DNA of 63,085 nt, the filler included, from Hausera hauseri (lineage: Eukaryota), in assembly GCA_046269625.1 (NCBI GenBank). It is 10 parts of 10 records of this genome, joined end to end, with 100 filler letters (N's around TTAATTAATTAA, not from the genome) between each part and the next. Parts side by side here need not be neighbours in the genome. Positions count along the whole stretch, not along the records: positions 1 to 6,058 come from JBJURY010147090.1; 9 more parts are not named here. One strand, 5' to 3'. The position numbers were made by a program, and so were the translations under genes. The notes under the pieces were generated by a model, which did no database searches, was not told the DNA's origin, and saw only the letters and a program-made list of their open reading frames with translations. Shown here piece by piece: positions 1-58,102 of this stretch (positions are counted from its first letter, which is position 1; every line of letters starts with the position of its first letter).

Positions 1-118
1 GTGCGTGCGTGTATCATTTTTTCTACCCCATGACTCATCCGCGAACCAAACTTTTCCTTCTTTCCGCGGGGGGGGGGTTGGTTTGGTGCGCTCACATCCC
101 CCTACTGACGATCCCTGT

Positions 119-1760
119 AAAAGGCTGAGAAAAAGTATTCCATTACTGAATTAGAAACCTCACCCGTTTAAGAAGCACTTCGACATTTTAGCGTTTACGC
201 ATACGGAGAGAAAATCATAATTGTTACTGATCATAAAGTTGTCACAACCCTGAAAAGGCGGGCAAAAAATACCACCTGTAGGCTGAATAGATGGTTTGAA
301 GAAATTTCTAGATATAATATTGAATTTCAGTATAAGCCTGGCAACAAACACGTGGATGTCAATGCACTATGGAGACTAAAAACCAAGACAAGTGTAACTA
401 CGGTAATGAAGAAAGCTGAGCTTGAAGAATTAATAGACTGTGAACGCGCTTTGACGTTGGACAAAGCACTGAAAATCTCAACCGATCAGAAAAAGGATAA
501 AGTTGTCCAGCAGATTATGGAATTTTCTAAAGGGATACAGTACCGAAAGGACGACAGCTTAAGAAACATTTATGCAGTCATGTACACTAATATTGTGTCT
601 TGAACCATAAAGGCCACGAAGACATTTTGTATTATGTACGGAAAGAAAGGAAATTAATAGTCATTCCAAAAGGCTTACGCACCGAAGTTTTAATGGCAGA
701 ACATGATTCATATTTAGCAGCACACATGTCATGGAAAGAGATGCTGGAAAGAATATTAAATAAATACTTTTGGCCCACTATCTATATTGATATGAAGAAT
801 TGGATAAATGCTTGCAATGTATGTGCAACTAAACAGAAAAAGACGAAAAATTATGTGGCAGAGCAAAAACCAATTGCCGTACCAGACAGACCTATGCAAG
901 CCATGTCAATGGACATTATAGGACCGCTACCTACGATTCACAAAAATAATAAATATATCCTAACTTGTATTGATCGATTAACTCACTTTGTCAAATTGGT
1001 AGCGATAACCGATCAAAGACAGAAACATTGGCAGAAGCTGTAGTAAGAAGAATAATTTGTCGATATTGGCCCCCATATCAAATACTGACAGATGGTGGAA
1101 GAAATTTTACCAGCGAATTGCTTGAGAAAATTATTAAAATATTTGAGATTGAGCGGTTAACAGCCACTACATACCATCCTCAATGTAATGGAATAGTTGA
1201 GTGAATGAATGCAACTGTCATACGCATATTATCCACAGTAGTAGCCAAGGACCAAAAAGGTTGGGACGAATTTTTAGTAGGAACTCAATTTGCCATTAAT
1301 ACAACACAACATCCAGCGACAGGATTTACACCATTCTTCATGATGTATGGACGTGAAGCTGTGTTACCCACAAGTTTAGAAATGACACTATACACGCTCA
1401 ATCCCGAAGATTTTAAACAAAATTTTTTGCAGAAGTGCTACAGACGCGATTGAAAAAATGTTGGGAATTTGCCAAAGAATTGTTTCGAGAATATCAAGAG
1501 CAGTTTTAAAGGCAATATTATAAAAAAGTAAAACCACACGATTTAGAACAAGGAAATTGGGTTTATGTACATTACCCAGTAGCTAAGAAAGGTACGTCGT
1601 TAAAACTGACTCGTACAGGCAGAGGACCATATAAAGTTACTAAAATTACGCCAGCTACGGTGTACATCAACAAGTATGGAAAAGAAGACGTCGTATCAGT
1701 ACAGAGAGGCGTTAAGACATATATACGACCCAATAAACGTTACAACCTACGACAACGAGA
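119..1760 (+). pseudogene. pol: Gypsy pol: RNase H C-terminus plus integrase (zinc-binding, rve core, GPY/F), with stops and frameshifts
   Basis: EHDSYLAAH..YFWP..CNVC (ORF 600-1043), SMDIIGPLP, ILTDGGRNF, YHPQCNG (~1170), TGFTPFFMMYGRE, RGPYKV (~1621). Confidence 0.92.
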
Positions 1761-1764
1761 GATG

Positions 1765-3200
1765 AAAACTTCTTTAATAATTGCTAGACCGATATCATAC
1801 ATTCAGATAGTTTTAGCACTGTCGTTAATTGCTTCTTATATCCCAAAAGCACAAACTCAAGGGTGGAATGATGAAACTACCCTAGGAGACGTATATGGAA
1901 TTCGGAAGAGTGGATTAAAGCCGAAAAACATTATAACGGAAAATAAACCAACGCCCGAAGAGATACAAAAACGAGAAGGCACTATTTTGTTACAACTAAT
2001 GAAGGTTCATTACTTTTTGCCCGACACTGTGTGTGCTGGATTTAAAACTTGGAGACCGCATCACAATTTTGGACGACTTCCAGTTGTACTATACGATGTA
2101 ACACCAAAGAAGTAAAAAACTGAGATTTTGAACCCGGAGATTACACACAGTGCTGCGACATAGATTATTGACATATCTACATCTTTACTTATCGACTGTA
2201 CTTACCAGACTCATCAGAAGTTTATATCGAAGTAAACCAACAACTTCAGTTAGTTATTCCCACTTGGACTAGACGATTCGAAATGAAACTCAACGAAATT
2301 CTACAACCCACCGACCCAAATATAAGGCTATCAGATGAAAACATCAAAAGAATTCAGTAAATAAAGAAAAACAGTGCTTCCAAGTAGATGCTCGAAGAGG
2401 ATTAACTCTACGTCAAGAAATTAGTATCGTTTTTGAAACAGTAAACGGGAAAACACCGAAAATTGAATATTGTTCTGTTCATGCCGGTGTGCAACACCCA
2501 TGTTGTAAGCTACCAATAAACCAAGAATTCAAAATAAGATTTGACTTATATCAAGTACGACCGAAAAAACGGAGCAAACACTTTCAAACATATTACCAAG
2601 AGAATAGAATATAGAGGATTCCAATAGAGACGACAACGAAAAAGCCAACAACTCGAGTTAGCACCATTACTCAAACCGTTACAACAGGTAGTGCACCTAA
2701 AAGAAAATTAGAAAGTGTACCTATCAAGTATTCGGGGCATCGATTTAGAATTGTGTTCTTTGTAGAAGAAAAACTAAATTACGATATAAATATAAGCTGC
2801 CGAACAACGTATAATAACCAAATTGTAACATTACTTAAAAACACTTAATAGACAGAATGCAATTTGTTAAAACCGCAATCCGATTACATAATACACGTAT
2901 ATGCAGAGAATAAACAAAACCAAACAATTACATTGCGTACCTTAGGTGAAATTCGTGCAGAATCGCATATATACGAAAACATAGACGATGAAATCACAAC
3001 TCCAGTCACCATGCAAGTAACAATGGGATTAACCACTTTACCGATAGTATTAATTGTCGTACTATCAAAGTTTGTTCTCATTATATTAATTGCGATTTTT
3101 CGGTTAGTTGCCAAAAATTGTCATTCTAAGCGTACTAAAACTACAGAATGAGAACTAAGGGAATTAGAAACCTCTATTGATCCGTATGATAAAATAACCT
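1765..3200 (+). pseudogene. Retrotransposon-borne type I membrane protein with signal-like segment, Thr-rich stalk, fibronectin type III-like domain and TM helix
   Basis: Hydrophobic IQIVLALSLIASYIPKAQTQ in frame with the integrase tail; LKPQSDYIIHVYAEN (FN3 LxPxxxYxIxVxAxN pattern) and TM LPIVLIVVLSKFVLIILIAIF in ORF 2864-3151. Confidence 0.6.
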
Positions 3201-3314
3201 GACAACTACAGAGCGGGTTATTCTATCATCAAATAAAGGATTGGTTATATTTCAAGACCATCCTTTATTGTAAAAGTAATCCTTACTGTTTATTTTTCAG
3301 ATTAGAGTATTCAC

Positions 3315-5911
3315 ATGGCCGAGCGATGCAGTATCGACAACCAACCAAAAGGAACAAGTCAAGAATTTCGATATAGCATCGACGAGTTTCTTCAGAAATA
3401 TGCCCCGTCTTCCTCCCAAATTCCAAATCCATATATCGATAAATTTATAACGAATTGCATGAGAAAACTTTAGTAAATTACGATCAGACTAGTAGAATTC
3501 CCAATAATTATAAGGTATTACGGAAGAAAATAGAATTGTCTCTCTCTGCGCTATTCGAAAAGACAAGGATGCCCGAGCATACTAACTCAAACAGATGATC
3601 ACGTACGAACATCACCAAAGTTTTATATCCACCTGGCAGACGGTGAGATATACTATTGATTCAAAGATCAAGAATGGAACGCTAATAACGGAAGGCAATA
3701 CAGATTTAGTACCCTTAGCCTACATAGCGGAGATTTGCATCACTATGAGTTAGAATTTCGAGTAGCTGCCCATCTTGTCAAATTGATATTCGAGGCGACT
3801 TACGATGACTATCCCTATATCCAACAGCCACCTTTGAAATTCTATCAACAACCGTCAGAAAAGGATTCGGACACATTCTTACAATCACATATACTAGTGC
3901 AAGATGCCAGAAATACAAGAATCATAGTAATCAATTGTGGAGAAGGGAATGATGAGCAATAGATTCCAATGGAAGTCTCAATTCGATAAGCGAACGGAAC
4001 AGAAGTATATTGTACGATTATTAGCCCGAGAAAAAGAGCCCGCGAGACATACTAGGATACGACAGGAATTCGCAATGAAACACTCCCGAGAGGTACAGAC
4101 GTCAAACTTGTCCAGGTCGAGTTAGAACATTGTTTATATGGATATATCCTCGCTGGATATCACGTCGACAGGATTGCTGAATTACTGGAAATACAAAGCT
4201 CAAGCATCGTAGGAATGCGTGAGATAGGAACACACCCGGTAGTCGCCGAGCAAACTAAACGAATATTGCGAGAAAGAAATTACACTGTGCCGAAAGTTAT
4301 GGATGCCTATTTCTAGTTAATGGTCGACGCCATGAACAGCGAACATGTTAAGATTAGCAAACTGTTAACCGCTAGTCAATACACTCAATACTTGCGCGAT
4401 AATTACGTTGCTTTAAAATGGGACCACGAATGGATACCCAGCAAACCATAACAAAACATACGAAGTTCGTCATATCCAAAAACTATAAACAAAAAGTACC
4501 GGAAGCAGTACCGTCCAGATTCCCCGTACAGGATTGTTGAACCTATGGCACAGGATGATGTAATGATAAATATTCGGAAATCAAATCAAACATGTACCGA
4601 TGTGCCCAGCTCCACTTATAGTTCCCACGACAAATCCAAATTACCCATTGAGAAACCGACTCCGAAACTGGAATCAATAATCAAAGGGATAGCCGCGACT
4701 GAGACATTCAAAGTTCCACAAGTTCCACAGAAAAAGCAGAAAATTGAACTACAAATTCCAGCGGTTAAAAAAAAATATCTCTCTACGACTACTTGTTTAG
4801 AAAGAAAAGCAAGACCGTAAAAGGTAGCTAAAGGAACGAGCTCAACCCAGGTACAAGAAGATCGAACTAATAAAACAAACGAAGACCCCGGAATTTCGGA
4901 GACAAGAACAGCAATCCCAACGACATCCGCAAATAACCAGATGACAATTCTAATCTCAGAAAAACCCAAGAGATCGATACAGAAATACAAGGACCCAGAA
5001 GGCAGATTTAAACAGCTGTTCGCGGAAATTAATGTGCTTCGGAAAAGGAACTACCAGGAAGATGTGCATTTTGCAACAACTAAAGATTACCCGAAAATGC
5101 TAGTGACCACCGAATATTATAGTCACCAAAAAATTAAAGAGGTGATGTTTTTCGTTAAGACCACACCAGCACGAGAAGTTTATGAAAACACTTACATTTG
5201 GAAAAAGCCTAAAATAGGGAAATATATTGCATCAGTTTTTCAGTCGAAAAGAAACGGCAGGTTAACAGTGCCAGTGGACAAGGAAATGAAAGCTTTGTTA
5301 AAGAAACTATATCAAAAGTATCAAACAGATGGTGAAATTCCCGATTTAGATCGAGATACCATCGTTGATTGGACATTAGTATCAGTAGGTTGTGACCCCA
5401 GAAAAAGTTCCGTAACCCCAAACAAAAGAGAATCCATGGTTATCTATACCAAGATAACTATGGCCTGTATTTGAATCCATCGAAATCACAATAAGAGTAA
5501 ACTTAGATGATGAGAAATGGGACAAAGATTAGAACAAATGCCCAGTATGTGAAGCGAACCTCAAACAAGGCTACGTCCGTCCTAGATAACCGCGATTTTC
5601 GACACAAATATTGTCGAGATTGCTTGGAGAAATAGACATTAAACGATGGTTAAACCACTTGCCCCGTGTGTAGAGCCGAGGCAACCGAATTAAAATATTT
5701 TTCGAATGGTAGTTACACCCGTGTAGGCCGCATAAAATCACATTACAGTTATGAATTAGAAACGTATTTCCGAGAAACGCAGCCTAATACGGACGCAGAA
5801 ATGGATTTACGTCGACGAATAAATCTCCTTAGACAACTAGATAATGGAGTCATTTCTCTTCACGAAATTGGCACATCCGAGGATGCCGCTCAGGGAGGAG
5901 ATATGTTGTAA
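3315..5911 (+). pseudogene. Accessory ORF (~860 codons, broken) ending in a C3HC4-type RING finger
   Basis: Continuous A-rich coding-like sequence from ATG 3315; at ~5539-5680 CPVC...FRHKYCRDCLEK*...TTCPVCR. Confidence 0.65.
5892..5903 (+). promoter_or_regulatory. Polypurine tract (plus-strand primer)
   Basis: AGGGAGGAGATA directly before TGT. Confidence 0.7.
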
Positions 5912-6058
5912 AGACGTTCAAAATTTGTAAATACTGTTATAAGCAGCATGTTGTAAATAATTATTATTTTATGGCATTTTTTCATTATTGTACAAAATTA
6001 GAAATTTTAATCGACATTCAACTAGTTAATTAACTAGTTATTAGACTTGTGCATTGAA
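5904..6058 (+). repeat. Start of 3' LTR (truncated by contig end)
   Basis: Begins TGT right after the PPT; sequence switches to AT-rich non-coding. Confidence 0.6.
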
Positions 6059-6158: not shown

Positions 6159-8191
6159 CCTGGCATATTCCGCCTCTAATGCCTCTCTCGATCATAAGGA
6201 TCATGTCGTAATCCTTGATGATCTGCAGCCTTATGCCGGTATATCTCTACATAGCTGCTCAGCTCATCCCTGGAGCCGTAAGTAAATGAGGCGGATCCAA
6301 TGCATTGCTCTTCATTGTAACATCCATGAAGCTATCAAAAACACCTGTCAGCAGCAGCACGTCCGTCTTGAGGTATATGTCGCTGTATTCCCTTAATGTT
6401 CGGCATTGGAATGCATACCAGACGTTCTGGTCATGGTGGTAGTCAGCATCACTGATATCGCAATCAGAGAGGATATTGTAAAAGTCCTTCTTGTCAGGCA
6501 ATGAGGTCTCATCAAGTGTTTTTCACATGACATTATGTAGTCATGGAAACACACCTTTCCGCTTAACCAGGTCAAAGGTAGTGGGGAAGAATCGCTTCGT
6601 TTCCTTAAGTTCTTCTGCAGGGAGGTTCTTCACTAAACTCTCTAGTGAAGACGACATAAAACGAAAGCTGTCTATGAATCGAAGACTGATTTTCCCAACA
6701 TGCTTGGTAAAGGCTATATAATTCTCCTCACTGTTAGGGATCACATCTATATTACCATCAATGTTGCCTAATTCTCGGACTATGAAATGGGAGTCACAGC
6801 CCGAGATTATGAAACATTACAGGTACATATGTACATGTTTTGCAGCGGAGATTTCAGTTCTTGCATGCTGCTCCTCAATATGCATCTGTAAAATGGCAAT
6901 GATCCTTGACTATGATTTTCCTTGGTGAAGGACTTTTCGCACAAGTAACATGTTGTTGCCTTGCGATATTCTTCTGCTTGTTTCCACGACATGCTCATTG
7001 TATCCTTATGCTGCTGAAGCAGGTTTTCAAGCTTATGAGCCATATATTCAAGTCGTTGCATAAAATGTTCTGCTGCACCTGGCCCATGAATAGAAATGGT
7101 TCACTGTCCAGTCCTTTGGCATACATGCCATACGATGAGAGTTCATGATATTGGTTTGCCGTTGTGCTGCTATGCATTTTTATTAACGATCCATTCCGGA
7201 AGCTGAATATATGAACTACCCCGCATGGGAGAGTACTTGTGAACATACACAATCTCTTGATGGTTGCCAGTCTATCCGCTCTTCTTACTCTGGCTCTCAT
7301 CGGATTCACGGATCAGCTTTGCATGTTCTTCATGCAGCCATTCTACTATATTGGTGGCTTCAAAAATGGTTCTATTTCTCGTCTTGAAGGTCCTTTTGGA
7401 CTCATCGGCATCAACATTGACGTATGTGGTCTCAAGTTTCATATTAGCCTTTATGGCCTTGAGCTCAGCTATGTTGTCCTGGAGAATTCCCTTTGTTTCT
7501 TCCTCTGTGTACTCCAGGAACTCCTTTATGGTTGTTTGACCAGTTGCATCAATGACATTTTGAGGCATTTCCTCTTTAAGACTGCAGCATCAACTAGCCG
7601 CTGTCTTTGACTCTTTGATGGAGCCGCTGCGCCTGATGCGCGTTTTAGTCCTGCATCTGGTTGTACTGCCGACTGTGGTACTGCAGGCTGTGCTGCCAAA
7701 GCAGGATGCTGATCTTTAAATATGACCTTCTTTGACTTTGATGCGAAGACAGTCAAATAATGTTTATGATCTTCATAAAAATGTATGTATTCTCCATCAC
7801 ATACGGCCTCACATCCTGGTCAGATATAATAGATAATCCTATTGAATTTGTGTCCATAATAGCTCCTCATGGTATTGTGAAAATTCTGAGTGTTGTGTAT
7901 TGCACATGTTCAATACACATATGAACTGCATCTTTGATTTTCCTTTGGCACGAAAGTCGTTATTGGCATATTGGTACTGAATATTTGTTTTTTTGACGTG
8001 GTGAAGGAAATCAAGTGCTGTTTATGGATATCGTAAAAATTTTCATAATTGGTTTGGCACACTACTTCACATGTAGGGCATATATAATACTGAACCCTGT
8101 TGTACATATGGCCAAAGTATTTCTTCATAACACTGTGGCAATTTTCCGGCTCGTGGATTTGAGCCAAACATTCGCTGTAAAGTTTGAACAT
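6159..8191 (-). pseudogene. Polinton/adintovirus-type protein-primed family B DNA polymerase, N-terminal half, degenerate
   Basis: TCYLCEK (endonuclease VII-like region), FIDSFRFMSSSLESLVKNL, RKGVFP, YSDIYLKTDVLLL..VF, LDPPHLLTAPGMS, IERGIRGGI at the contig start. Confidence 0.88.
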
Positions 8192-17879: not shown

Positions 17880-18718
17880 CAAACTATACGAAAGTTGTTT
17901 AGATGTTACAAACTTGATGGAATTGCTTCTATTGTATATTTGCTGTCTGGTCTATTTGTAATGCAAAACTAAGCAGATCAGTGTGTTCTAAATCCCTAAT
18001 CAAAAGTCCTTCCTATTGTTTATGAGTTTAGATTTATCTAAAAATACAGACGTTATTTGAAGAAGCATGGAAAAAACAAATCTCCCCTGTCTTCTTGTGC
18101 CTAAGTATAAAATGATGACTATAGTTCATCTTGAAGCGTTTTGTTTTACTTTTGAAAGTATTGTTTATAAGATAGCTCCAGTTTAGGATGTGTTGTATGT
18201 GATCTGTGAAAAGATATGTGTGTTGACAAGTATGTGCTAATATTACAGTGCGTTTCAATTGTTTGGACAATTATCTTTATACAATTTATATAATTCTTCT
18301 GGTAATGTACCCAAAGTGTCATAAGTAACTTTCTGCTACCTTACAATCAGTTGAGGGACCAGATTTGTCTCGTTTAGGCTCAACAAAGATAGTAGGTCTC
18401 TCTTTGAGCAAGTTTATGTTTCTTGGTCTCAGAAGGAATAGCTCTCTCTCTCTTAACAACCAATTTCGATTGCACCCCATCGGCCGAAGTAGAGGGGTTC
18501 TCCTCAGAGAGACCAGTACGCTTGAGAGAGGCTCTATGATCATTCTGGACATGTATTTTTAATTTATTTACTCTTGTAAAATTCCGGCCACACACATCAC
18601 ATGGATGCCCTGGCTGGTATGTATATTTTCCCATGTGCAGATTCAAAGTGGCGACGAACATCACCAACACTGGTAAAACTTCGGTCGCATTCATCACAAG
18701 TGTGTCTTTTTCGGTCAT
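17880..18718 (-). pseudogene. Two-C2H2 zinc finger protein with a domain resembling the one upstream of Polinton-type PolB
   Basis: CDECDRSFTSVGDVRRHFESAH and CDVCGRNFTRVNKLKIHVQNDH, then FKMNYSHHFILRHKKTGE..FFHASSNN and RPDSK; frameshifted. Confidence 0.6.
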
Positions 18719-19344: not shown

Positions 19345-19770
19345 ACGTTATAAAAATTTTCAATGCGAAAACTTTTCATCAACAACTTTTCATGGTTGCG
19401 CATTTTCATGGCGAGAACTTTTAATGTCAGCAGCTTTTGATACTGGCAACTTTTGAGTTAAGAAATAATTGTCAGCGCTGTTTCATTTTGGCAATTTTTC
19501 TTGTTGGCATTTTTTCTTATTGGTAAATTTTATGGCTGGCAAATTTTTATATCGATAACTTTTCATGTCGGCAACTTTTCATGTTGGCAACATTTCATGG
19601 TGGTCAATTTTTCATGTCAACAATGTTTTTATGTCGGCGATTTTTTCATGGCGGTAATTTTTCATGGTGGCAGTTATTCATGTCAGCAGCTTTTTGTATT
19701 GGCAACTTTTTTGTATTGACAAACTTTTATGTTGGCAAATATTTTATGTAGGTAACTTTTTATGTTGAAT
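19345..19770 (+). repeat. Degenerate ~20-bp minisatellite (consensus about TTTTCATGTTGGCAACTT)
   Basis: Repeated TTTTCATG..GGCAA units. Confidence 0.8.
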
Positions 19771-21294: not shown

Positions 21295-21840
21295 TACACA
21301 TATTTTTACAGATCAGATACAACACACCCTACAGACTGGAGCTGTCTTTTAAACAATATTTTCAAAAGTTAAATAAGACGCTTCAATATAAACTATAGTC
21401 ATCAATCTATCCTTAGGCACAAGAAGACAGGGGAGCTTCGTTTTTCCCATGCGTCTTCAAATAACGTCTGTATTTTAGATAAATCTAAACTCATAAACAA
21501 TAGGAAGGACTTTACATACAGAGTTTGTTAGGGATTTAGAACACACTGATCCGCTTAGTTTTTGCATTACATAATAGACCAGACAGCAAGTATACAATTG
21601 AAGCACTTCCATCATTAAGTTTTACATCTTTCCTACAGTTTGAAGGGGAAATATACAGATAAAACAATAAAAATCATCAATATATACATACACACGACAT
21701 TAATAACAATTATCTTTGTTATCTTACTTTTTATATTAAAAGACAGTTCCAATCCAACAAAGTCTCAACACCACTCGACATTTAAACACACGACACATAG
21801 ATGCCCTGGCTGGTATGTATATTATGTAAATTTGTAAGAT
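21295..21840 (+). repeat. Diverged inverted copy of 17690-18225
   Basis: e.g. TTAGGCACAAGAAGACAGGGGAG, TTCAAATAACGTCTGTATTTT and ATCCAACAAAGTCTCAACA are reverse complements of the 17.7-18.1 kb sequence. Confidence 0.85.
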
Positions 21841-28199: not shown

Positions 28200-28420
28200 A
28201 GAAATTAATGATATCATTCGACTAGATAAAAGAAAAAGAGTGTGAAATGACTACTCATTCCTACGTAAAGGATGTAAGAGAATGGTTACTGAACAATGGC
28301 GGAACAAATGAGTTAAATTACAGATTTTACTTTAGAGGAAGAATACTCGACGATTTAGAACAACTAATAGATGTCGGAATCATTCCCGGCGAAACAAATC
28401 GGATAGTAATAATAATAGCC
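28200..28420 (+). pseudogene. Ubiquitin-like domain inside the retroelement polyprotein
   Basis: VKDVREWL..G....YRFYFRGRILDDLEQLIDVGIIPGET.IVI parallels ubiquitin [38 protein letters not shown]. Confidence 0.7.
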
Positions 28421-35092: not shown

Positions 35093-35409
35093 CTTTAGTT
35101 TTTTAATGTTTTTAGTTTATGATTTGTAATAAAATTTATTTGAGTTTTTGTGTTGTGTTATGTTGTGTTGTGAAAAGTATCTGAGATTTTGAGTAATATG
35201 AGATTTTTTTTTCGATAACCCAACTTAGGCCACATTTCCATGTTATAAAACAGAAGACAAAAACTAGTGTACAAATACGTTATTGATCACGTGTACAGCA
35301 GATGAATGCAAAACAAACAAAAATCACAAATGTCAATGATCTGGCTGGTCTGAATTGCATCTTTGTACTGACTGAACTGTTTTGTTACTGATTGAATAAT
35401 GAACGTGTG

Positions 35410-38116
35410 TTATCTTAAGCGCCAATGTCCGTACGCCCAACTTTTATTTCTCCCCACCCACTTTCGCTTATCATCGTTGCATGACAAAGCAACCTTTTTA
35501 TTTGTGATGGTATACAGCTGGTGCTCAATCGATCGTATGTTCGTTTGAGACACAACAGCCGTTCCTCCTTCTCCGTCATCTTGTCCATCATAGACACGGA
35601 GATAATCACCGTGATTTATTTCCGTCTGTTTCAGCTGGATGCCTTTTGCCCGCATTTTCGGCCCACAGTCTGTTAGAAGACTGTAACACTTTGGGCACAA
35701 AAATATCCATTCCTTGTATTGAACCCGGCCTTCACTTTCGTCCTTGAAGCAGTCGATTTTGTTTGTTACCGCGCTGCTGTACAGTGAATGGTCCGGTGGG
35801 TAGTTGGACGCGTCCAGTAGTCCATCTGACATCATTTGTCGGAGCAGCTGGTCTCGATTGATGTTTTTCAGATCAAGAAAGAAGCTGTCTGTGTCACCGG
35901 CAACGACACTGATCTTACAGTCGCCGCTGCCGCCGAACATTTTCCGGTAACGTGCCAAGTCGCAATATTTGAGCTCGTACATTCGCAACTTGCTCAGATC
36001 CAATACCACTTGTCCAATGTAGCTTGGCCGGTCCAGTACGACTTCTTCCCAGTTTAGAAGCACGGCGACCAATCCATCGGCAATGTGCATTGACCGTCTG
36101 AACTAAGCCTTGCTGGTGTACGTAACCAGTCGTTTTTCGTTGTTGGACAGGCGCACATTGAGCCGCTTCTTCAGATTTTCCACTGTTTTCCCGTCCAGTG
36201 AATTGTTTTTGAGCTTGTAATAGTCCTTTTCGAACTTTGTACAAATTGCAGCTCGTTTCCCGGAATTTCCATCAATGTATGCCTTGAATATCGGCACCTG
36301 ATTGAAGCGGATTGCACGAATCAGCTGTGTGACGCGTACACCGAGCTGCATGTAAAACTGCAGCAGACGCCAATGAACCACGTAATTCGATTTGGGTTCA
36401 TGTGTTATGATCTGTTTCTTTACTTTTGAGTAGCCGGGTAGACATTGGCTAATTGGTGCGACCGGCAGTTCATCCAGAAAATCATGCACCTCATCCGGTA
36501 CCACGAGATCAACTTCCATTAGGTAACAGACTGAGCTGCTTTCTGTCGTGTTTGCTGCTTGCAGACTGTCCACCAATGTATTTCGTTCTTGTTTGTCCAT
36601 TATCCATTCAAATAAACCTTACTGCAAAGGTTGCGAAAGCGCCCAGCCGTTCGGGTTATTAATATCGATGTACAACATTGACGTTGTATCATCGTCATCA
36701 CTGTTTACGTGATGCTTCTTGACAAATGTCATGCCGCCACGAATGCCAACGTCAAACAGTTGGTATATTCCCGGGTCTTGTAGCAGCTCAATGTCTCGAT
36801 CTAGTGACATTAGTTCCGATGCCCAACTCATTCCCGGTATTGAGTAAAAGTTGAGCGGTTCCAACCTATCTTCATCCAACGCTTTAGCCCAAAATGTCTG
36901 AAACACATTGGCTAATAAGTACACATCGAGCTTTAGATACTGAAGCATGTAGTCCAACATGTTTCTACAATTGAGCTCTGTTCAAGATTCCTGTGCTCTG
37001 TGATATTCATCTTCTGTGATACCTGTCCATCGCGGCGGTAATTCCTCTGTCGTCCGGAGTCGCTCATATGACACGGCAAAGTCATACGGGAATATACCTT
37101 TGCTCCGTGTAATATGTGTGGGAACTGCGTCATTGCTATCGACACATCCGGCAAGGCATTTACCAGCTTCGCCAGCGATTAATTGAGAAATTGCAATGAA
37201 TCGAGGAAGCGTACCTGGAACCGGTTCATGCGTGCCAATAGGGAGAGGTACTTTTCCATCTTTGTTGGGATTATGGATAGCTCCCAGTGCGGAAATCCAT
37301 TTACGGAGCATTTCAGAATATGGTGACAGTCATAACCCCTGAAGTTATGCTTCTCCCAAGTATTGACCAGTGAAATGATCGTGATCCGATACGAGCCGTT
37401 CTAGTGCGTGAAACGGTAATATTTTGTGACACAGGTAACATTCATCGGTCGCAGAGAACATCAGCTGTTCATATTCATCTGTCCAAATCAATGGTTTAGT
37501 GAAATTATTGCGATAGTACGGCTCTATTTCCGTTTCCACTATCGTTTCTAAACGCTGCAGGAAATCACGTACAGAGTTCCAGCCGTGAAAGGCGTAATAC
37601 GGCGGCTGACTGACCGCTTTTATTGGGGCAACCAACATACAAACGGCAATTGGAACGTGTTTTTGATCATACTCGTTGTGCCGTGGTAGAATTGCCTCAA
37701 TATCGGAATATATTATATATGCCAAACTGTCCGTTTTTGACCAGTCACTGAATCGGAAGCTCCTTTTTGAGTGGCATGACGTACATGGTTGTTCCCGTTG
37801 AATTCTGCTTGCACAGCGCCACATGTTTTTCCCATGCTGCCTTTGACCTGAAACCACGCAGACATACAGGACACCATATACATTGTATACGCTTTTGGAC
37901 AAACTGATGGTGATCCATGTTCAACAGTCGGTCCAAATTGGTCACTGTCATGTAACGGAACTTTTCTTTTTGTTCCAGCAGTAACAAATATATTGGGCGT
38001 CCATTGCGTTCCGACTTTGATATATTATGTCTACATGGGGGTTCTTATATATCTCTTCGTTTGCCGGTATTTGTACAATTGTATTGTACCGCAACACATT
38101 TATTACCAGTGTTGGA
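35410..38116 (-). pseudogene. Protein-primed family B DNA polymerase (Polinton/adintovirus type), nearly full length, degenerate
   Basis: CPVC..H..C finger, IIYSDIEA, DHDHFTGQYLG, KGIFPYD, YLKLDVYLL, GIRGG, YIDINN..GWALSQPL, YYKLKNNSLDGKTVEN, GDTDSF, FKDE, PKCY, DDKR. Confidence 0.93.
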
Positions 38117-38216
38117 NNNNNNNNNNNNNNNNNNNNNNNNNNNNNNNNNNNNNNNNNNNNTTAATTAATTAANNNNNNNNNNNNNNNNNNNNNNNNNNNN
38201 NNNNNNNNNNNNNNNN
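38117..38216. other. Artificial contig spacer
   Basis: 44 N + TTAATTAATTAA + 44 N. Confidence 0.99.
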
Positions 38217-38435
38217 CGAAATACAATATTTTACGTAAAAGATCAAATCAACGGTCAGAAGTTTACGCAACCTCACTCCTAATTTCCCGATTTGCTAATG
38301 AAGACATATTCAACATCGAACCACTCAACAATGGTGGTATCTGACAGTATTCCATGTCCGTATCGTGAATATGAATTGCATTGTGCATACAGAAAATGTT
38401 TAGCGCTATGTATAGACTATGTTTCACGTAAATAA
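38217..38435 (+). pseudogene. Polinton-associated exonuclease-like protein, 3' part (copy 2)
   Basis: NTIFYVKDQINGQKFTQ..CPYREYELHCAYRKCLALCIDY, homologous to 34127-34346. Confidence 0.7.
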
Positions 38436-38734
38436 ATATACATATTTCTTTTCTCTTATGTAAATAAGGTTCATGACGCATTGATATGTTGAATTGTTCA
38501 AAATTATAATAAATGTAGGTTATAAGATTAATATTTATGGAAATAGTAGATCAGTTGAAGCAATTGCAAAATTTTGATGGGTTATTAATTTCAGAGTTGG
38601 TACAATGGTGGCAAGTATTTGATAATTATTTAGTTGTAAGAGCAGGAGATTTGGGATTTAAAGAAGATTTGAAAGTAGAAATGGTCGAACACGCATTGCT
38701 AAATTACATTAATTACACTCAGTTCTAGATATCA

Positions 38735-40433
38735 ACGGGTAAAATGATTGTGATCCGGTACGAGCTGTTCCATAGCATTGAACGCTAACCTTTTTTGACA
38801 CAGATAATATTCATCGGTGGCAGCAAAAGCAACTGTTTGTATTCATCTGTCCAGATCAAAGGTTTAGTGAAATTATTGCTATATCACGGTGCTATTTCTG
38901 TTTTTACTATTGTTTCCAAGTGTTACAGGAAATCGCGAATATAGTTACAACCATGAAAAATGTAATACTACAGTTGACCAGTGGATTTTATTGGGACAAC
39001 CCAACATACCGACGGCAAATAGAACATGCTTCTGGTAATAAACGTTGTGCCGTTATAGAATAGCTTCGATATCTACATATACCACATATGCAGGAATGTC
39101 CGTTTTAAATAAGTCACGGAATCTGAGATTCTTGTTAACAAGCATTACGTACATTGTTGTTCCTGATGAATTTTGTTTGCATAACGTCGTATGTTTTTCC
39201 AATGTTGCTTCTGACTTGAAACAATGCAAGCATACAGGACACAATTTACATTGTATACACTTTTTGATGAACTGATCATGGTCCATGTTTAACAATCTGT
39301 TTAAATTTGTCACGGCCACGTAACGAAAATTTTTCTTTTGCTCTAATAGTAGCAAATTTACTAAACAGACTTTCGGGTTCCGACTTCGATAAATTATGTC
39401 CACATGAGGATTCTTGTAAACCTCTCCATCCGTCAGTATTTCTACTATTGCGTTATACAGGAAAAAGTTTATTGATAGTGTCAAATTACGCCGTTCAAAA
39501 GCCGGAATGCTTTTCAGTTTCATTAGCATCCAGCACTCATCAAAGTCCAATTCGAAAAAATATTGCCGATACTGTTTTGGACGATATGCATGATCTCTGG
39601 ACACTTCGTTATATTTTAATACAGCCAGAATGCTGTAAAGAAATCAGTATTCCTCAGTATTTTTTACATTCACTATTGCAAGAGACTGCTTCAGAGCTGC
39701 AGGTGTCGGTATGTATGATCGTCCAGACGAATATATTATATCACTTGGCTTTGTTATAATAAAGTCGAGAGTGATAATTTTTATAATTCTTCATCCACTA
39801 CCTTTTTCGGTAGAGTTGGCGATTTTCTCATCGAGCCTTTCGCCTATATCAGCAATAAATCTTCGGAATAAGGTACAGCTGAATGTAACAGGTACCACTG
39901 TTTCCTGTCACCTTGTACATTTTGAAATTTACATATTGCACTTTGCAGTGGTGTTGGAATTTCTTCACTTCTGATTCTAATCGAATGCCCACACTGGACG
40001 GTACGTGTATTAATTGCAGTGTTGTTCTCGCTGACATGTCCACTTTCATGTCCACGTACGACATGTTTAGAATCTAATCTTTAGATCGTACTTCACAGTA
40101 ATGGGAAGGTAAAGTTCCTACTGATGCTCCTGCTGCTGATGCTGCTGATGACAATGCTGCGTACTGATGCTTTAATGTATTCTTTAAGGCTTGTTAAATC
40201 TTGACGTTTTCTGCTTGTTGAGGGAATGCTTTTGTTTGGTGCGTCCATCACTCTTTGCCTTTTGGAGCGCTAAAACTGGTTAAATGATTCCTATGGTCGT
40301 TATAAAATTGTTCATAGTTGATTTGCGCTAAAACTATTGAACAACCCGGACAAATATAGGCCCGTTTACCATGCACCGTTTTGGTGCCACAGTATTGCTC
40401 CATTTTACTATGACACCCATCAACGTTATGCAC
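38735..40433 (-). pseudogene. pPolB N-terminal region (paralogue of the contig F copy)
   Basis: LLLEQKKNFRYVAVTNLNRLLNMDH, LCPVCLHCF..KHTTLCKQNS, VYVDIEAIL and DHNHFT align with 37350-38100. Confidence 0.85.
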
Positions 40434-41049: not shown

Positions 41050-44000
41050 AACCTCCTCTGACCTACCCTCACCATCGAGCGGCGATCGGTGGGCCTTGAC
41101 TGGGGTGGCTGGCATTTGGCTTGAGCGTTTTGAGAGCCATTTCGCCGGAGGTTTTGGCGCGCCCTCAATTCGTGCGACACATCGCGTCCCGGGCATTTTA
41201 GACAATTTTCTATACCTCGTTTCTTTTTCTCAGAATAAACAAGTACACTCATGTTACGTGCGTAAAAAGTCATCAGTTGAAAACTTGTCTGGTGTGTTGT
41301 CACATCAAACTAACTTTAGTAGTTTTCGCCTTAACTTCAATGGTTTTCTTCTTCATCCATCGGACATTCTCACATCTTTTCCCCATTTATCTTTAACACT
41401 TCTGCTCACCATACACCTTTGCTCAGCTGGTCTGATCCAAAAGCCTCATCTAACGAACAACAAAACTTTGTCGACATTTCTGCTCTCAGTGTACCTCTAA
41501 ATCCCCCTCTACCTCCGCCGTCTACCATAAACCTACCTTTCGTAGAATACTTAGCCAACAAGCAACATTCCAGCCGAACATGGCTGGACATCCATGCAGC
41601 TGGGTTAAAGTCAAATAATATGGTCGACTCCTTCCTTAAAGCAAACAGCTTTCTTATACTTTAGCCTACCAACATTAAATCGCCGTTTTCCAACTTTTTG
41701 TAAATATTTCAAAGCAGTGACCCATAAAAAGCACTCTTTAATTAGACCTTAAAAATCACGTAACCATCTCTGGATAATATTATCCACAAATATTTCTATG
41801 ACAACACCATAGGCACATTAAAACCCTCAGAATTTCTTCAAACCTCGTTAACTCAGTTGAGTACTCTTGGCGTTAATCAAGCAAACAACGCCGATTTACT
41901 ACGCAGATATTTTCTGCGCTCTTTACCCAGAGACATACGTGCATTATTAACTATAGTAGAGGATACATCGACACTACAAAAGCTGGCACAATTGGCTGAT
42001 AAAAGCCGTGAGATATTACTCGCACATACAGCCCCATTAGTCATTGCTACGCTGCAAACATGAGCAACACAACAGGTTGACGAAATATCAAACATGAACA
42101 GTCAAATTAATTCTTGACGTACCAAATATGCCAATTTCACTACTCACATCGAAAATCGAAGCTTTGGCCATGCCTAGGCGGAGTCGTTTCGATGCTAACC
42201 ATAGTCGCACTTTGTCTCAAAGTTCAAGACATACGATGTAGCCTACACGATCAATGGTGTGTTACTACTACTCAAAATTTAAATATAATGCCACTAGATG
42301 CTTCATAAGTTGCAGATTTATGTTCCCATTTTAGAGGATACAATATTGTCTGCATTTACCATAATAAGTTTAACTTCAAAGCCACAACTGCATCACAGGT
42401 TGCACCTTTGTTAACCGATCAAATCCATCACAACCTACTTCTTCAAATAACTTAAATACTGTACCTCCAAAAATCTTATAAAGCCACCAGATATTTCGGT
42501 ACATACTGGCACGGTCAAGCGTTTTAATTCTGATAGCTGCACCTACACTGTTTTCACTTTAAAAGCCTCCTTGACATCCAAACCCAGTCAACCAATTAAC
42601 TTCCTTATTGATTCGAGGCCGCTGTCTCTTTGTTGCCATCGTCCATCAAAACAACAGCCATTTCACCATCTAACACCAGGTTGTATACAGCCAACGGCCA
42701 AGCATTATCTGCGTTCTGCACGTCCTAGATCTCATTCACGTTACCACCATTCTCCGACATTTTGAAATGGATTTTCATCATCGCCGACACACAATCCCCA
42801 ATAATTGGCTCTGATTTCCTATCTTTCTGCAACCTCGTTACAGATTGCAAACAACGTCGGATCATTAAAAGCAGTTCAACAAAGCCAACTTCTACAAATA
42901 ACCCCCCACGAACCACGCATCCTATCTCATCTATAAAATCGATATTAAAGAAATCATAAGCCAACGTAAATAAAAACCTTATTGATACCAATATAAATAA
43001 TCCAACGTTTTAGTTGAAGTCCGATAAAAAAGGAACGAAAAGCGTTGACAAAGATGATTGAGGCAACTCGATTTCTACCGTTTCTTTCACTGCGTCCAAT
43101 CAATTCACCGCCATAACGACAACATACTTTACTACGCTTAGCCAAGGATTACGACAGTATTTAATCAAGACATGTTTTCGTACGATAAAAAATATGCAGA
43201 ATTTCGACCAGCTGGCACTACATTCCATCATATATATCACAGAAAATCTTAGGCCTGTTAGGCAGAAACTCCGATCACTTTCAACACACCGTCGACTGGC
43301 TATCCAAGCGGAGTTCTCTTCACTCGAGCAAGCTGGAATAACAAAACGCTTTAAATCAGCGTGGGCATCACCACTCCACGTCGTCCCAAAAAGGTGGCAC
43401 ATTTCGTCCATGGGCGATTATCGCCAACTTAATAATGTCACTACAATGGATGCTTATCCTCTACCGTTGATTAAGGATATGTTACATTCTTTGCAAAAAA
43501 CCACAATTTATTCAACCGTAGATCTTGAAAAAGCCTACCACTAAATACCGGTAGCACTCGAAGACGTCCAAAAACGGCCATAATAACACCCTATGGTCTC
43601 TTCGAATACGCATTCATGCCGTTCGGTTTGAAGAACGTAGCACAAACTTTTCAACGACGCATTGATTCAGTCCTTTCAGGTTTGCCATTTGTACATATAT
43701 ATATCGACGATATACTAGTCGCATCGACATAACCCAAACAACACTAAGTACATTTCAGACTAGTTTTCCAACACTTACACAACTATAATTTGCAAGTTAA
43801 CTTTTCTAAGTGTCCCTTCTTCCAGAAAAAGGTTAATTTCCTTCGCCATGTCATCACACCTAATAATCACAGTCCATAGCCTGATAGCATTCAACAATTA
43901 CGAAACATTGAGTTACCAAAAACTACTACTGACATGCATAGTTTCCTCGGGACGTTACATTTTGCACATAAATACGTCCAACACTGTAGTCAGTTAACTG

Positions 44001-46036
44001 CTGCTTTCGCTCAACCCGGAGCAAGGCCGACAAAAAAACATATATTGCATGTCAGAACTTGTAAACCAGTTTGACGAACTCCGCGACAAGCTTAAAACAG
44101 TTGAAATATTAGCTTAACCAAAATCTGATGCTGACCTCATTTTGAAAACCGATGCATCGGTTCTTCACCAAATATCCCAAGATATAAATAAGCCACTAGA
44201 ATTCTTTTCACGTAGGCTTTAGCCACAAAAACGCCGTTATTCCACATTCGACAAAGAACTCTTGGCCACATTTAGCTCTTAAACATTTTTCTCATTTGCT
44301 TATCGCTCGTTCCTTCACCATTCAAACGGACCACAAATCTCTCGTCCACGTAATGAACACGAAATAATCATCACTCTGACAAGAACGTCTTATCTCGTAC
44401 CTGTTAACATTTAACATTAAAATTTGCATTATTTCTGGTACGGATAATTTAATAGCATATTTCTTATCACGACCAGTCGGTGCAATTAGCGTCACACCCA
44501 TATTCTCCAAAGAACAGTTAATCCAAAATTACCCTTCAGCAAATATTCCTAAACAATACAAATCTGTCCAAATCATCGATGGCGTAGCAATGGACACGTC
44601 GAGACCTTGGCAACATTTACCAATTTTGGCACCTTCTCTCTAACAAATAGCATTTAACTATATCCATTAGTTGCATCATCCAGGTTCCAAGGCTACATTC
44701 CGCCTCCTCAAACGTAACGTAACATGGCCATCAATGAGGTCTGACGTACAAAACCGGGTTAGGCAATGCGTATCTTGCCAAAAATTTAAAGTAGCTAAAT
44801 ATCTTAAACCACCATTATTCCATTTTCCATGTACATCCCGCTTTGAGTCAGTTCACATAGATATCGTTGGCCCATTACCTTCTGATAACGGCCACCAATT
44901 CACCTTAACAATAATGTACCGCGCGTCTCGTTGGCCGGAAGCCGTCCCTTTACGCTCCATCAATATAGACTCCATTGCCAACGCATTCATAAGTATTTGG
45001 ATTAGCCGCTTCGGTTTACCTCGCTATATAATTACAGACCAAGGACCTCAATTTGAGTCAAATCTATTCAAGTCCTTAGCTAATCGACTGGACATAAATC
45101 ACATACACATAACTCCATATCATCCCCAGTCGAACGGCTTGTTGGAACACTTTTATCGCACTCTCAAGATCTCGTTAAAAATCCTGGTCGAAACTAATAA
45201 GAATTAGACAACCATTTTTCCTTTTATTTTACTGGGGTGGTGCAATACGCCGTCTACTACCATTGGTTGCGCACCCGCTAAAGCACTTTTCGGTATCACA
45301 ATTTGTGCACTTTTTGAACTCACCGACTTGGACAACACACCAACTGACGAAACAATTAGGTCTGCACAAATTACTTTGTTCATCTAAACCAGGATTCTAT
45401 CTGCAAAACAGTACATTGTGACAAAACATACTTACCTGACTCACTATTTAATGCAAAGTTTGTGTGGTTAAAAACCCTTCACCTTCCGGTTTTCAACCAA
45501 ACTACTTAAGACTATTTAAAGACCTCAACGTTATCTCACACACAGTTACGACATTAAAAAATGATAAGGAACAAAACGTTTACATAACTAACGTGAAACC
45601 TGCATTTTTGTTAATGATACACCAGACCCCTCAGCTGAGCCTTCAAAAACCTTTCTCGAGTCCTTCAATCCGTCTTTTGTTCTACTTCCACGACAACCTG
45701 CTACTTCAAGACCTGCAGAAATTCAATACACTATACTAAACGACATACCGACCAGTTCTCAAGCTGCTGACATGTTCAATCAAAACCTAACTTCATTTCA
45801 ACCATCTCAACAAACAAGTGAACAGCACGTTAAACAAAGCAAGACGGTTGCCTTCAGCAAATACATCAGAGAACAAAATACCGATAAAATTCAACGTCTC
45901 GTCCATACAAAGACCCATTAGTTCGCTTACACCATTCTGCTTTGTCTCTACTTTCTTCTTTCTACCTTTTTATCTTCTTACAGCGTCTTTTTCGTAACGG
46001 GGGTAATGTGGTGCCGCGGACTCGGGCGCCACCACA
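41050..46036 (+). mobile_element. Gypsy LTR retrotransposon (CsRn1-like), near-complete gag-pol, heavily degenerate
   Basis: gag KPSEFL..FLRSLP..LAQLADK; CHCC-like motifs ~42257 and ~42347; PR INFLIDS; RT SAWASPLHVVPK, GDYRQLN, YIDDILV; RH KTDAS, YSTFDKELLA; IN HHPG..CVSC, VHIDIVGPLP, ITDQGPQF, YHPQSNG; PPT ~45997. Confidence 0.92.
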
Positions 46037-47964: not shown

Positions 47965-49270
47965 TCTTAATGATGCCGCGGTGGTATATCTTTCGTAAAT
48001 AAGCATAGGGTTGTCTCTGGTGAAAGCATCAGTCTCTTGTATATAGATGTAAATAATTTTCACGGCTGGGCTTTATCGCAACCACTGTCATTTGCGAATT
48101 TGGTTTGGATATATGATGAGAATAAGTTAAACAGTCTAACTGAACAATTACCCTATATTGACCGTCTCACGGAAAAACGAAGTTGTATTTAAAGTCGACT
48201 TGAGCATTCCTGCTGACAAACATGATAAATTGGACCTACTGCCTCTAGCCCCAATTAATAAACGTCCGCCTGGTTCAAAAGTTAAGAAATTGCTGCTTAC
48301 ACATGAGCGAAAGTCCAACTATATTGTTCACTACCGGCTCTTACAATTGTACATCGATTTAGGCGCTGTAGTTGAAAAGGTACATCGAGCCGTTGAGTTT
48401 GACCAGAGTTATGGCTTTAAGGATTATATCGATTTAATACTTCTAAGAGGGCTGCGGCGGAAAATCCTTTTGAAAAGGACTTTATTAAACTTAAGAACAA
48501 CAGCTTATATGGCAAAACAGTAGAAAATTTGCTGAATAGGTCTTATCTGAGATTGTGCACTAATGCTAAGAAGCTTGTTACATATGCAAGTAAGGCCCAT
48601 TTTATAGAGAGAATAATAATAGCTGATGATCTAGTTGCCGTTCTCCTCAATAAAGACACAGTCACATTAGATAGACCCTCATTCATCGGTCAGACCGTAC
48701 TTGATCTATCCAATTTATGGATGTATGAGCTGAATTATATCGACTTGGAGACGTATAGGCACCAGTTTCAGTGTGAACTTAATGTTGATGCTGGTGACAC
48801 AAACAGTTTTTTCATTGAATGTCGTGGCGCGGATTTAAAATCGCAACTCTTACCGGCAATGATAGCAAATGAGCAGTTAGATACATCGAACTATGATAAG
48901 AGTGATCCGCTGTACTCGACTCGTTTCGCAGCTGTAATTGGGAAATTTAAAGACGAGAGCAAGGGCTGCGTTCAGTATCAAGAGGCAATTTTCCTACGGC
49001 GGAAATCCTATGTCCTCAAAACCGAATCCAAACCAGTGCTCAATTGCAAGGGCATAAATATCAAGCGGACAGACTTGCAGCTCAGTAATTACCTACAGGC
49101 TTATGAAACCGGTTGCAGTACTATGGCGGATAAGGAACGAATTGGCAGTAAAAACCACAAGCTCATGACAATCAGTTCAAAAAAGAAAGCACCGGATCCG
49201 TTCGACGACAAACGCCACTGGATTGAAAAGAATAAAAGTGTTGCATAGGAACATTATTGTATAAATATGT
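47965..49270 (+). pseudogene. pPolB C-terminal polymerase domain (Polinton/adintovirus type), degenerate
   Basis: RGGISFVNK, LLYIDVNN.HGWALSQPL, KLKNNSLYGKTVEN, LDRPSFIGQTVLDLS, GDTNSFF, GKFKDE, DDKR. Confidence 0.92.
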
Positions 49271-50243: not shown

Positions 50244-50699
50244 TCATTTAGACGGCAATACGCGGCATCTGACTGTCATTGTGTTGTTATGGATGGCACC
50301 TTTTATTGATTTTAATTCTTCATACGTCTTGAATTGAATAAATCCATCTCCATAATTTCTATCATTGATTGGTTTGTTGTATGCTTCTCTTCTGTGTTCA
50401 GGATATTTCCTTTCTGCTGCAGCAGCCAAACAAACTTTTTGTGACAAAACAGGCAATGCAGTTTGTTCATCAACAATTTCAATTAGAATTGTATCCTGCA
50501 TTGGCCATTGCAATTGGTTGTCATTTGGACTTTTCATTAGTTTGAATGTCAGATACAATCTGTATGATGAACTCATCCAATAGTAAAGGCACATTTTGTA
50601 TCCATCATTTCCATTTGAATGAAATGATGGGCTGTATTCACCTTTGCCTATTTTATATTTGTCATCAATTCCTTCAATCCGCAACACAAAAACATGCAT
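50244..50699 (-). CDS. TRAF-type MATH domain protein (C-terminal exon)
   Basis: FVLRI..YSPSFHS..GYKMCL..LYLTFKLMKSPNDNQLQWPM..IEIVD..GFIQF..EEL..NNTMTVRCRV follows the TRAF-C pattern; intact to the stop codon. Confidence 0.82.
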   Translation of the reverse strand: MHVFVLRIEGIDDKYKIGKGEYSPSFHSNGNDGYKMCLYYWMSSSYRLYLTFKLMKSPNDNQLQWPMQDTILIEIVDEQTALPVLSQKVCLAAAAERKYPEHRREAYNKPINDRNYGDGFIQFKTYEELKSIKGAIHNNTMTVRCRVLPSK

Positions 50700-57700: not shown

Positions 57701-58102
57701 TGCTTTTATTGTGTTGTGCATGTATAAAACGTTGCAAATACAAGGAAATCATGTAAGGCAAATTGGGTAATATTTGGAGATGAAGCATCATGGGAATAAA
57801 GGAGCACCTACACCGTGTTTTCTCTAGTTTCGAACGCTTAAATACGTTGCATTTGTTGTGTTGTGCATGTAAGGCAGTTTGTGTAAAATTTGAAAATAAA
57901 GCATCATAGGAATAAAGGAACATTTAGACGTTGTTTTCTAAAGTTTTGAGAGCTCAAATAGGCTGCATTTATTGTGTTGTGCATGTATAAAACTTTGCAA
58001 ATACAAGGAAATCATGGAAGGCAAATTAGGTAAAATTTGGAGATGAAGCATCATGGGAATAAAGCAGCACCTACACCGTGTTTTCTCTAGTTTCGAACGC
58101 TT
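51737..58102. repeat. Satellite DNA, 146-bp monomer, ~43 diverged copies
   Basis: AA(A/T)TACAAGGAAAACATG recurs at 52161, 52307, 52453 (period 146) and throughout the contig. Confidence 0.97.

Follow-up and report, generated by a model that had tools for sequence, protein, structure and literature searches.

A broken gene for a receptor-like membrane protein of likely FN3 type behind a decayed Gypsy integrase

Introduction

Enveloped retrotransposons have been described with one envelope protein that serves for both binding and fusion. Among the Ty3/Gypsy elements, errantiviruses with the order GAG-ENV-POL and an envelope protein of the HSV/gB type are found in flatworms, nematodes and bryozoans (main text of PMC13524379), and the planarian giant Gypsy element Burro (GYPSM1) also has its env between gag and pol, together with a long polyprotein, accessory ORFs, and RING and other cargo (main text of PMC6431247). 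The cargo named there comprises AIR1/RING, Smc, MATH, BIR, ankyrin, BCL2, Ubi/SUMO and dUTPase. The bdelloid elements Juno and Vesta carry extra ORFs behind pol, usually one ORF3 per element, that include DEDD exonucleases of the DEDDy kind and short transmembrane proteins (main text of PMC5408684).

The locus that we describe here shares several traits with these systems. It has a Ty3/Gypsy pol, with a RING finger remnant and a DEDDh-like region behind it, and on a contig related to it a gB-like env precedes pol. It differs from them in that a membrane protein of likely FN3 type is encoded directly behind the integrase. We found no second membrane protein after the integrase named in PMC13524379, no FN3 membrane protein amongst the Burro cargo in PMC6431247 and no FN3 protein for Juno or Vesta in PMC5408684, and the word "fibronectin" is absent from the main text of all three. 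Full-text literature searches found no LTR element described as having an FN3 membrane protein, while Repbase, figures and supplements may annotate the region; an accessory FN3-type surface protein in this known kind of element is apparently undescribed. If a second, FN3-built surface protein is indeed kept across lineages (at 35-49% identity), then attachment and fusion would be separable in such elements, which would offer a handle on the host cells that these abundant elements target and on their movement from cell to cell. It would also mean that a retroelement has domesticated a receptor module of cellular origin, and the dead locus described here would be of value as independent evidence of this architecture from a diverged copy.

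Results

The locus and its pol remnants

The DNA that we analysed (the window, 63,085 bases) consists of ten contigs with artificial spacers (N44-TTAATTAATTAA-N44) between them, and because the contigs are joined by spacers, adjacency across a spacer has no positional meaning. The locus under study lies on the first contig (1-6058). The plus strand of this contig is A-rich throughout (AT skew 0.20), and all of the features described on it are encoded on that strand. The contig begins within an RNase H gene, and RT and gag are absent from it. The C-terminal part of a decayed Gypsy RNase H and the bridge region occupy 121-600 (PF17917, E 3.4e-8), followed at 591-1761 by an integrase interrupted by frameshifts and stops, in which we recognised H2C2, rve and, at 1624, a GPY motif (PF17921, E 1.6e-16; PF00665, E 4e-5; translation). 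The order of RNase H and then integrase, with H2C2, rve and GPY/F, identifies the element as Ty3/Gypsy. Positions 1-120 hold a microsatellite and a G-run that do not align to the RNase H of the contig at 24975-33524; they are either eroded pol or unrelated DNA.

A broken gene and its reading path

The integrase is followed, at 1762-3202, by what was once an intact gene for a type I membrane protein. This copy is dead: it contains two frameshifts and six premature stops (2121, 2169, 2612, 2846, 2849, 3149) before the gene ends at 3202. Frame 1 is free of stops from 1510 to 2112 (201 codons, 0 stops), which was equalled in 0 of 500 shuffles, and this open frame spans the GPY motif, the end of the integrase, a Met codon at 1762 and a hydrophobic stretch at about 1800-1835; the fusion of integrase and ORF in the decayed copy rests on about 10 stop-free codons. 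The preliminary description had placed the whole surface protein in frame behind the integrase. We found that this is so for the first quarter (about 117 codons), and that the remainder is read in frame 3 (about 2109-2354) and then in frame 2 (2357-3199). The stop scarcity of the frame-3 piece is not significant on its own (50 of 500 shuffles), and its assignment rests on an intact relative, P0004.

This relative came from a phmmer search of 1,835,955,588 proteins, with the frame-2 part as the query and X at its stops, which yielded three matches: P0004 (479 aa, E 3.6e-43), P0005 (189 aa, E 4.6e-40) and P0006, which is XP_078000500.1 (E 3.2e-4). P0004 and P0005 are unnamed single-member clusters from ENA. 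P0004 is 39, 33 and 36% identical to the products of 1780-2097, 2109-2354 and 2357-3199, respectively, and because it matches all three frames, including the two pieces that were absent from the query, it confirms the reading path from 1780 to 3199. It is a stand-alone call with its own Met just before the conserved start, known from its protein sequence. P0005 is partial and shares 48-49% identity with the window copy. As called, it lacks everything ahead of the Thr-rich linker, within which it starts, and consists of domain 3, the transmembrane helix and the tail; P0005 could be either a broken copy or a genuine short form. The third match, XP_078000500.1 of Glandiceps talaboti, is fibronectin-like and has nine fn3 stretches, and it was matched over one domain at 32% identity.

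Other searches were negative. Word-based protein searches matched 0 of 198, 0 of 77 and 0 of 706 candidates, scans of viral contigs gave no match, the Atlas gave no lead for 1762-2112, and sequence searches of the PDB returned either nothing or chance matches. One metagenome locus (L001) was rejected because it lies within a bacterial gene for purine synthesis and matched by chance.

Anatomy of the encoded protein

The protein opens with a signal-peptide-like stretch (1762-1857) that is in frame with the integrase C-terminus. The N-terminus of P0004 is near-identical, with conservation beginning at 1780. The hydrophobic, signal-like stretch that had been noted after the GPY motif is indeed present at about 1800-1835 (best 11-residue hydropathy 2.58), and a putative signal cleavage site was placed by eye near 1857. 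An ectodomain containing cysteines had also been noted, and we counted 10 Cys positions along the reading path. Its first predicted FN3-like domain (1990-2260, limits approximate) was located by tblastn of P0004; a frameshift near 2100-2112 interrupts it, as do the stops at 2121 and 2169. The second (2345-2620), likewise predicted to be FN3-like, is broken by a frameshift near 2355 and the stop at 2612; it retains its four Cys and is identical to P0004 at 25 of 66 residues. A Thr/Ser-rich linker (2630-2692, 57% T+S), with a T-run invariant in all three sequences (the window copy, P0004 and P0005), separates domain 2 from domain 3. The Thr-rich stalk of the preliminary description therefore exists as a sequence but not as a stalk: it lies between two domains, away from the membrane.

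Domain 3 (2700-2960), which includes the stops at 2846 and 2849, contains a Cys pair (2798, 2858), an E-F motif (2867-2911) and two N-glycosylation sequons. It is followed by the transmembrane helix that had been noted (3038-3109), whose mean Kyte-Doolittle hydropathy of 3.25 over 19 residues was reached in 0 of 1000 shuffles and which corresponds to a helix at 430-457 in the P0004 model. The protein ends in a short basic cytoplasmic tail (3110-3202, with the stop at 3149 in the window copy) that carries a C-terminal Y-x-x-I-T. Domain 3 is the best-kept part of the protein (45-55% identity among the three sequences). The residues invariant in all three include its Cys pair, L375, P377, Y381 and A387 of the E-F motif, and Y475, I478, T479, C454 and basic residues of the tail. 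That cysteines, domain 3 core and tail are invariant at an overall identity of 35-49% points to selection.

Sequence evidence for FN3-type domains

L-x-P-x-x-x-Y is the E-F motif of FN3 domains. The longer form reported in the preliminary description, LxPxxxYxxxVxAxN, is present at 2867 as LKPQSDYIIHVYAEN; with a pattern that was picked after the sequence had been viewed, this was the sole match in the six frames of the 63,085 bases, and 0 of 1000 shuffles of 1762-3202 gave one. Among 24,736 Pfam models, domain 3 of the window copy matched only two, NDNF-FN3 (E 0.027) and fn3 (E 0.14), both below the cut-off. The fn3 scores of the window copy and P0005 were 12.8-13.6 bits, against a gathering score of 25, and P0004 had no fn3 match.

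The comparison with XP_078000500.1 is similarly weak. The score of the window copy against a repeat of this protein was reached in 0 of 3000 shuffles, a figure that is circular because the protein was picked by the same query; the fair figures are the E value of 3.2e-4 and the scores of the relatives (13, 42 and 108 of 3000 shuffles). The hhalign probability was 5.7%. FN3-type sandwiches are common to the protein described here, to XP_078000500.1 and to a poxvirus IFN-gamma-binding protein (PDB 3bes), and XP_078000500.1 shares with domain 3 a pair of cysteines in strands C and E. Cellular FN3 proteins differ in that the similarity is weak and confined to one domain, that the strand-B Trp is replaced in the protein described here, and that this protein is carried behind an integrase.

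We also looked for internal repeats. Domains 1 and 2 of P0004, which have four Cys apiece, repeat one another (0 of 5000 shuffles), while the likeness between domains 2 and 3 is weak (106 of 5000) and that between domains 1 and 3 is nil. All 10 of 10 tests for internal repeats in the decayed window copy were non-significant.

Predicted fold

We modelled P0004 with AlphaFold2 from a three-row alignment. The model, which is of low confidence (pLDDT 46.8, pTM 0.24), consists of a signal helix, a long helix, three beta-sandwiches and the transmembrane helix. Its top PDB matches in Foldseek were fragments with three FN3 domains, from fibronectin, gp130, contactin and Tie2 (E 1e-6 to 8e-5, about 340 columns). 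The best E value was 9.7e-7 and 54 matches reached E 0.001 or better; TM-scores were low because the orientation of the domains is unresolved in the model. In VIA comparisons, domain 1 (residues 74-162 of P0004) aligned to FN3 chains with a Z of up to 6.9 (rmsd 3.0 over 84 residues) and domain 2 (191-285) to a fibronectin FN3 domain with a Z of 7.5 (rmsd 2.3 over 80 residues). All VIA Z values were below 8, and about 29 of 50 rows were FN3-containing chains, as counted from titles and known domain content. The FN3 sandwich of domains 1 and 2 is seen on the P0004 model only, where pLDDT is about 55-65.

Domain 3 has seven strands with FN3 spacing in the model, and it was matched to FN3 in the three-domain rows only, the single-domain rows being other sandwiches. 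A single-sequence model of 2687-2986 (pLDDT 51.8) had a best VIA Z of 6.3, to non-FN3 sandwiches, and no Foldseek match at E 0.001, and was uninformative, as were the viral fold matches of the P0004 model, which were mostly phage FN3/Ig proteins. Taken together, the fold evidence for domains 1 and 2 and the sequence evidence for domain 3 make an FN3-type ectodomain likely, though not proven.

The preliminary description would have been undermined had no Ig/FN3 fold been predicted; the FN3-like sandwiches of the P0004 model leave it standing on this point. Its central proposal, a receptor-like FN3 membrane protein of type I behind a Gypsy integrase, gains support from the intact relative, the sequence matches and the low-confidence fold, with the amendment that three FN3-like domains, rather than one, are predicted.

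The region 3' of the gene

Further decayed coding sequence lies at 3306-5474, where stops are depleted relative to 500 shuffles both for 3660-4439 and for 4452-5471 (0 of 500 in each case). Neither Pfam nor the PDB gave a match for 3306-5474. Within it, 3900-4440 resembles a DEDDh exonuclease (an Atlas lead of 0.87 to the RNase_T clan, and a lead only), although by eye the first of the acidic catalytic residues appear to be missing. Being DEDDh-like, it differs from the DEDDy exonucleases of Juno and Vesta. The remnant of a C3HC4 RING finger follows at 5530-5911, where the last ORF also ends (zf-C3HC4, E 0.002, below the cut-off), and 3306-5911 is possibly one long ORF.

At 5892-6058 we found a candidate PPT (5892-5901), followed by a TG (5904) and by the putative beginning of a 3' LTR, which the end of the contig cuts. 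Three sites in 1500-6058 combine a purine run with TG, and the one at 5892-5901 alone falls outside the interior of coding sequence; at 5904 the T content shifts from 0.23 to 0.41. The contig contains no second LTR copy to pair with this LTR start. The gene had been placed upstream of the PPT, and a candidate PPT does lie downstream of it, but 2.7 kb of further genes intervene, and we found no PPT-like tract directly behind the transmembrane ORF.

Element family and the place of env

The composition of the gene is that of its surroundings. Its AT skew is 0.20 vs 0.21 for pol, and the trinucleotide r of 1762-3202 is 0.885 with pol, 0.907 with the downstream genes and 0.896 with the contig at 24975-33524; for the 8 other contigs it is at most 0.79 on either strand. 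The contig at 24975-33524 encodes, in order, a gag knuckle, long frames, a Monjiviricetes-type fusion glycoprotein, a protease, RT and RNase H. PF24664 matches the glycoprotein (E 2e-16 and 6e-15) ahead of RVP and RVT_1, which makes it a gB-like env between gag and pol, and it has its own signal-like stretch. By eye, this contig is similar to the C1a rows for Platyhelminthes in the supplement to PMC13524379. It also contains about 3.5 kb of coding frames, of which approximately 28300-28400 has a ubiquitin-like look by eye without Pfam support.

This contig stops where contig 1-6058 starts, in RNase H, and 18 of 26 residues in the shared stretch are identical; the two are relatives and different copies. 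The RNase H motif in these 26 residues is widely conserved, and for both reasons the tie between the contigs is suggestive only. The same stretch had no match to the other Gypsy element at 43-45 kb. We consider that the element on contig 1-6058 probably belongs to a GAG-ENV-POL family. Another decayed Gypsy pol, with RT, RNase H and integrase, lies at 43062-45400 on the plus strand and is distant (23-35% identity in integrase).

The preliminary description pointed out that the region behind the integrase is where env normally lies in errantiviruses. No viral fusogen profile matched the window pieces of 1762-3202 or P0004; by contrast, PF24664 matches the env of the contig at 24975-33524. P0004 lacks an R-x-K/R-R furin site and has one 19-residue hydrophobic stretch above 1.6 and no second, and no fusogen appeared among the matches listed for its low-confidence model. 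Because the fusogen of the probable family lies between gag and pol, the gene at 1762-3202 is likelier to be an additional protein than env, and the idea that it stands in for env is not upheld.

Discussion

We propose that the triple-FN3-type gene encodes a second surface glycoprotein beside a probable gB-like fusogen, likely one for attachment, and we put the probability of this whole reading at about 0.5. The hydrophobic stretch after the integrase would act as an internal signal that directs the ectodomain into the ER, where host signal peptidase would free it and leave the integrase in the cytosol. Internal signals cleaved by signal peptidase are known from viral polyproteins. Alternatively, the protein may start at its own Met. 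P0004 is called on its own and from a Met of its own, so fusion to pol need not occur, and it may vary among lineages. The helix at 3038-3109 would anchor the protein, and its Y-x-x-I tail, which fits a sorting signal, would route it to the membranes at which particles bud. Projected outward by the Thr-rich linker, the distal pair of disulfide-rich domains would then bind a ligand on the host surface and bring the particle, or a carrier cell, to its target, with fusion left to the gB-like Env. If fusion is supplied by a gB-like protein, attachment is the simplest role, and some viruses do pair gB with separate binding proteins; as a specific assignment it is nevertheless tentative. The FN3 modules likely came from a host receptor, long ago. 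A doubtful extension would be a two-part entry machine such as large DNA viruses have: host signal peptidase would cut from one polyprotein both a gB-like fusogen, encoded ahead of pol, and a separate attachment protein of host origin with three FN3 domains, encoded behind the integrase.

The main rival is that the same protein acts instead on the host cell, as a membrane-bound decoy (an option that the preliminary description had raised) or signalling mimic that binds a host ligand or receptor, or as a block to the entry of related elements. The tandem of domains 1 and 2 aligns to the two-FN3 regions of cytokine receptors (IL-6R, TSLPR and IL-20R, Z 6.4-6.8) and domain 1 to the poxvirus IFN-gamma-binding protein (Z 6.3), although these values are tied with those of fibronectin and adhesion proteins. 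WSxWS, the motif of class I cytokine receptors, is absent from P0004 and P0005. The tail tyrosine is conserved, but the tail has only about 25 residues. The neighbouring genes are of host-modulating types (RING, nuclease-like), and the Burro cargo is rich in regulators (main text of PMC6431247); against this, no close host receptor was found among 1.84 billion proteins. On balance we regard action on the host cell as rather unlikely.

Two other explanations strike us as improbable. In one, the gene is a passenger with no role for the element, derived from a host receptor mRNA by template switching or from a later insertion. The window copy is broken, and P0004 and P0005 are known from protein sequences alone, as this explanation would allow. 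However, the composition of the gene matches that of the element, the ORF starts exactly at the integrase end, and the 1.84 billion proteins include no close cellular parent, while two relatives at 35-49% identity keep the cysteines, core and tail. In the other, the element is of the ordinary gag-pol-ORF3 kind and has no relation to the contig at 24975-33524, and the protein is its sole envelope-type protein, replacing env. Its position 3' of the integrase would suit this, as would the lack of an env on contig 1-6058, which begins in RNase H, and small transmembrane ORF3s that are not fusogens are found in rotifer elements (main text of PMC5408684). Here the evidence on the other side is the missing fusogen profile, the lack in P0004 of an R-x-K/R-R site or a second long hydrophobic stretch, the predicted FN3-type folds, and the affinity to the GAG-ENV-POL contig.

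The rest of the window contains several other features. A satellite of 146-147-base units, in about 40 copies of two subtypes, occupies 51737-58102, and a degenerate 16-base tandem array (19387-19726) lies between 181-base inverted arms (18041-18221 and 21296-21476). Frames at 35400-39650 (minus strand), 48140-49245 (plus) and 6250-7800 (minus) resemble, by eye, remnants of Polinton-type DNA polymerase B. An isolated MATH/TRAF domain (E 3.5e-15) is encoded at 50247-50699 on the minus strand, MATH being a known Burro cargo.
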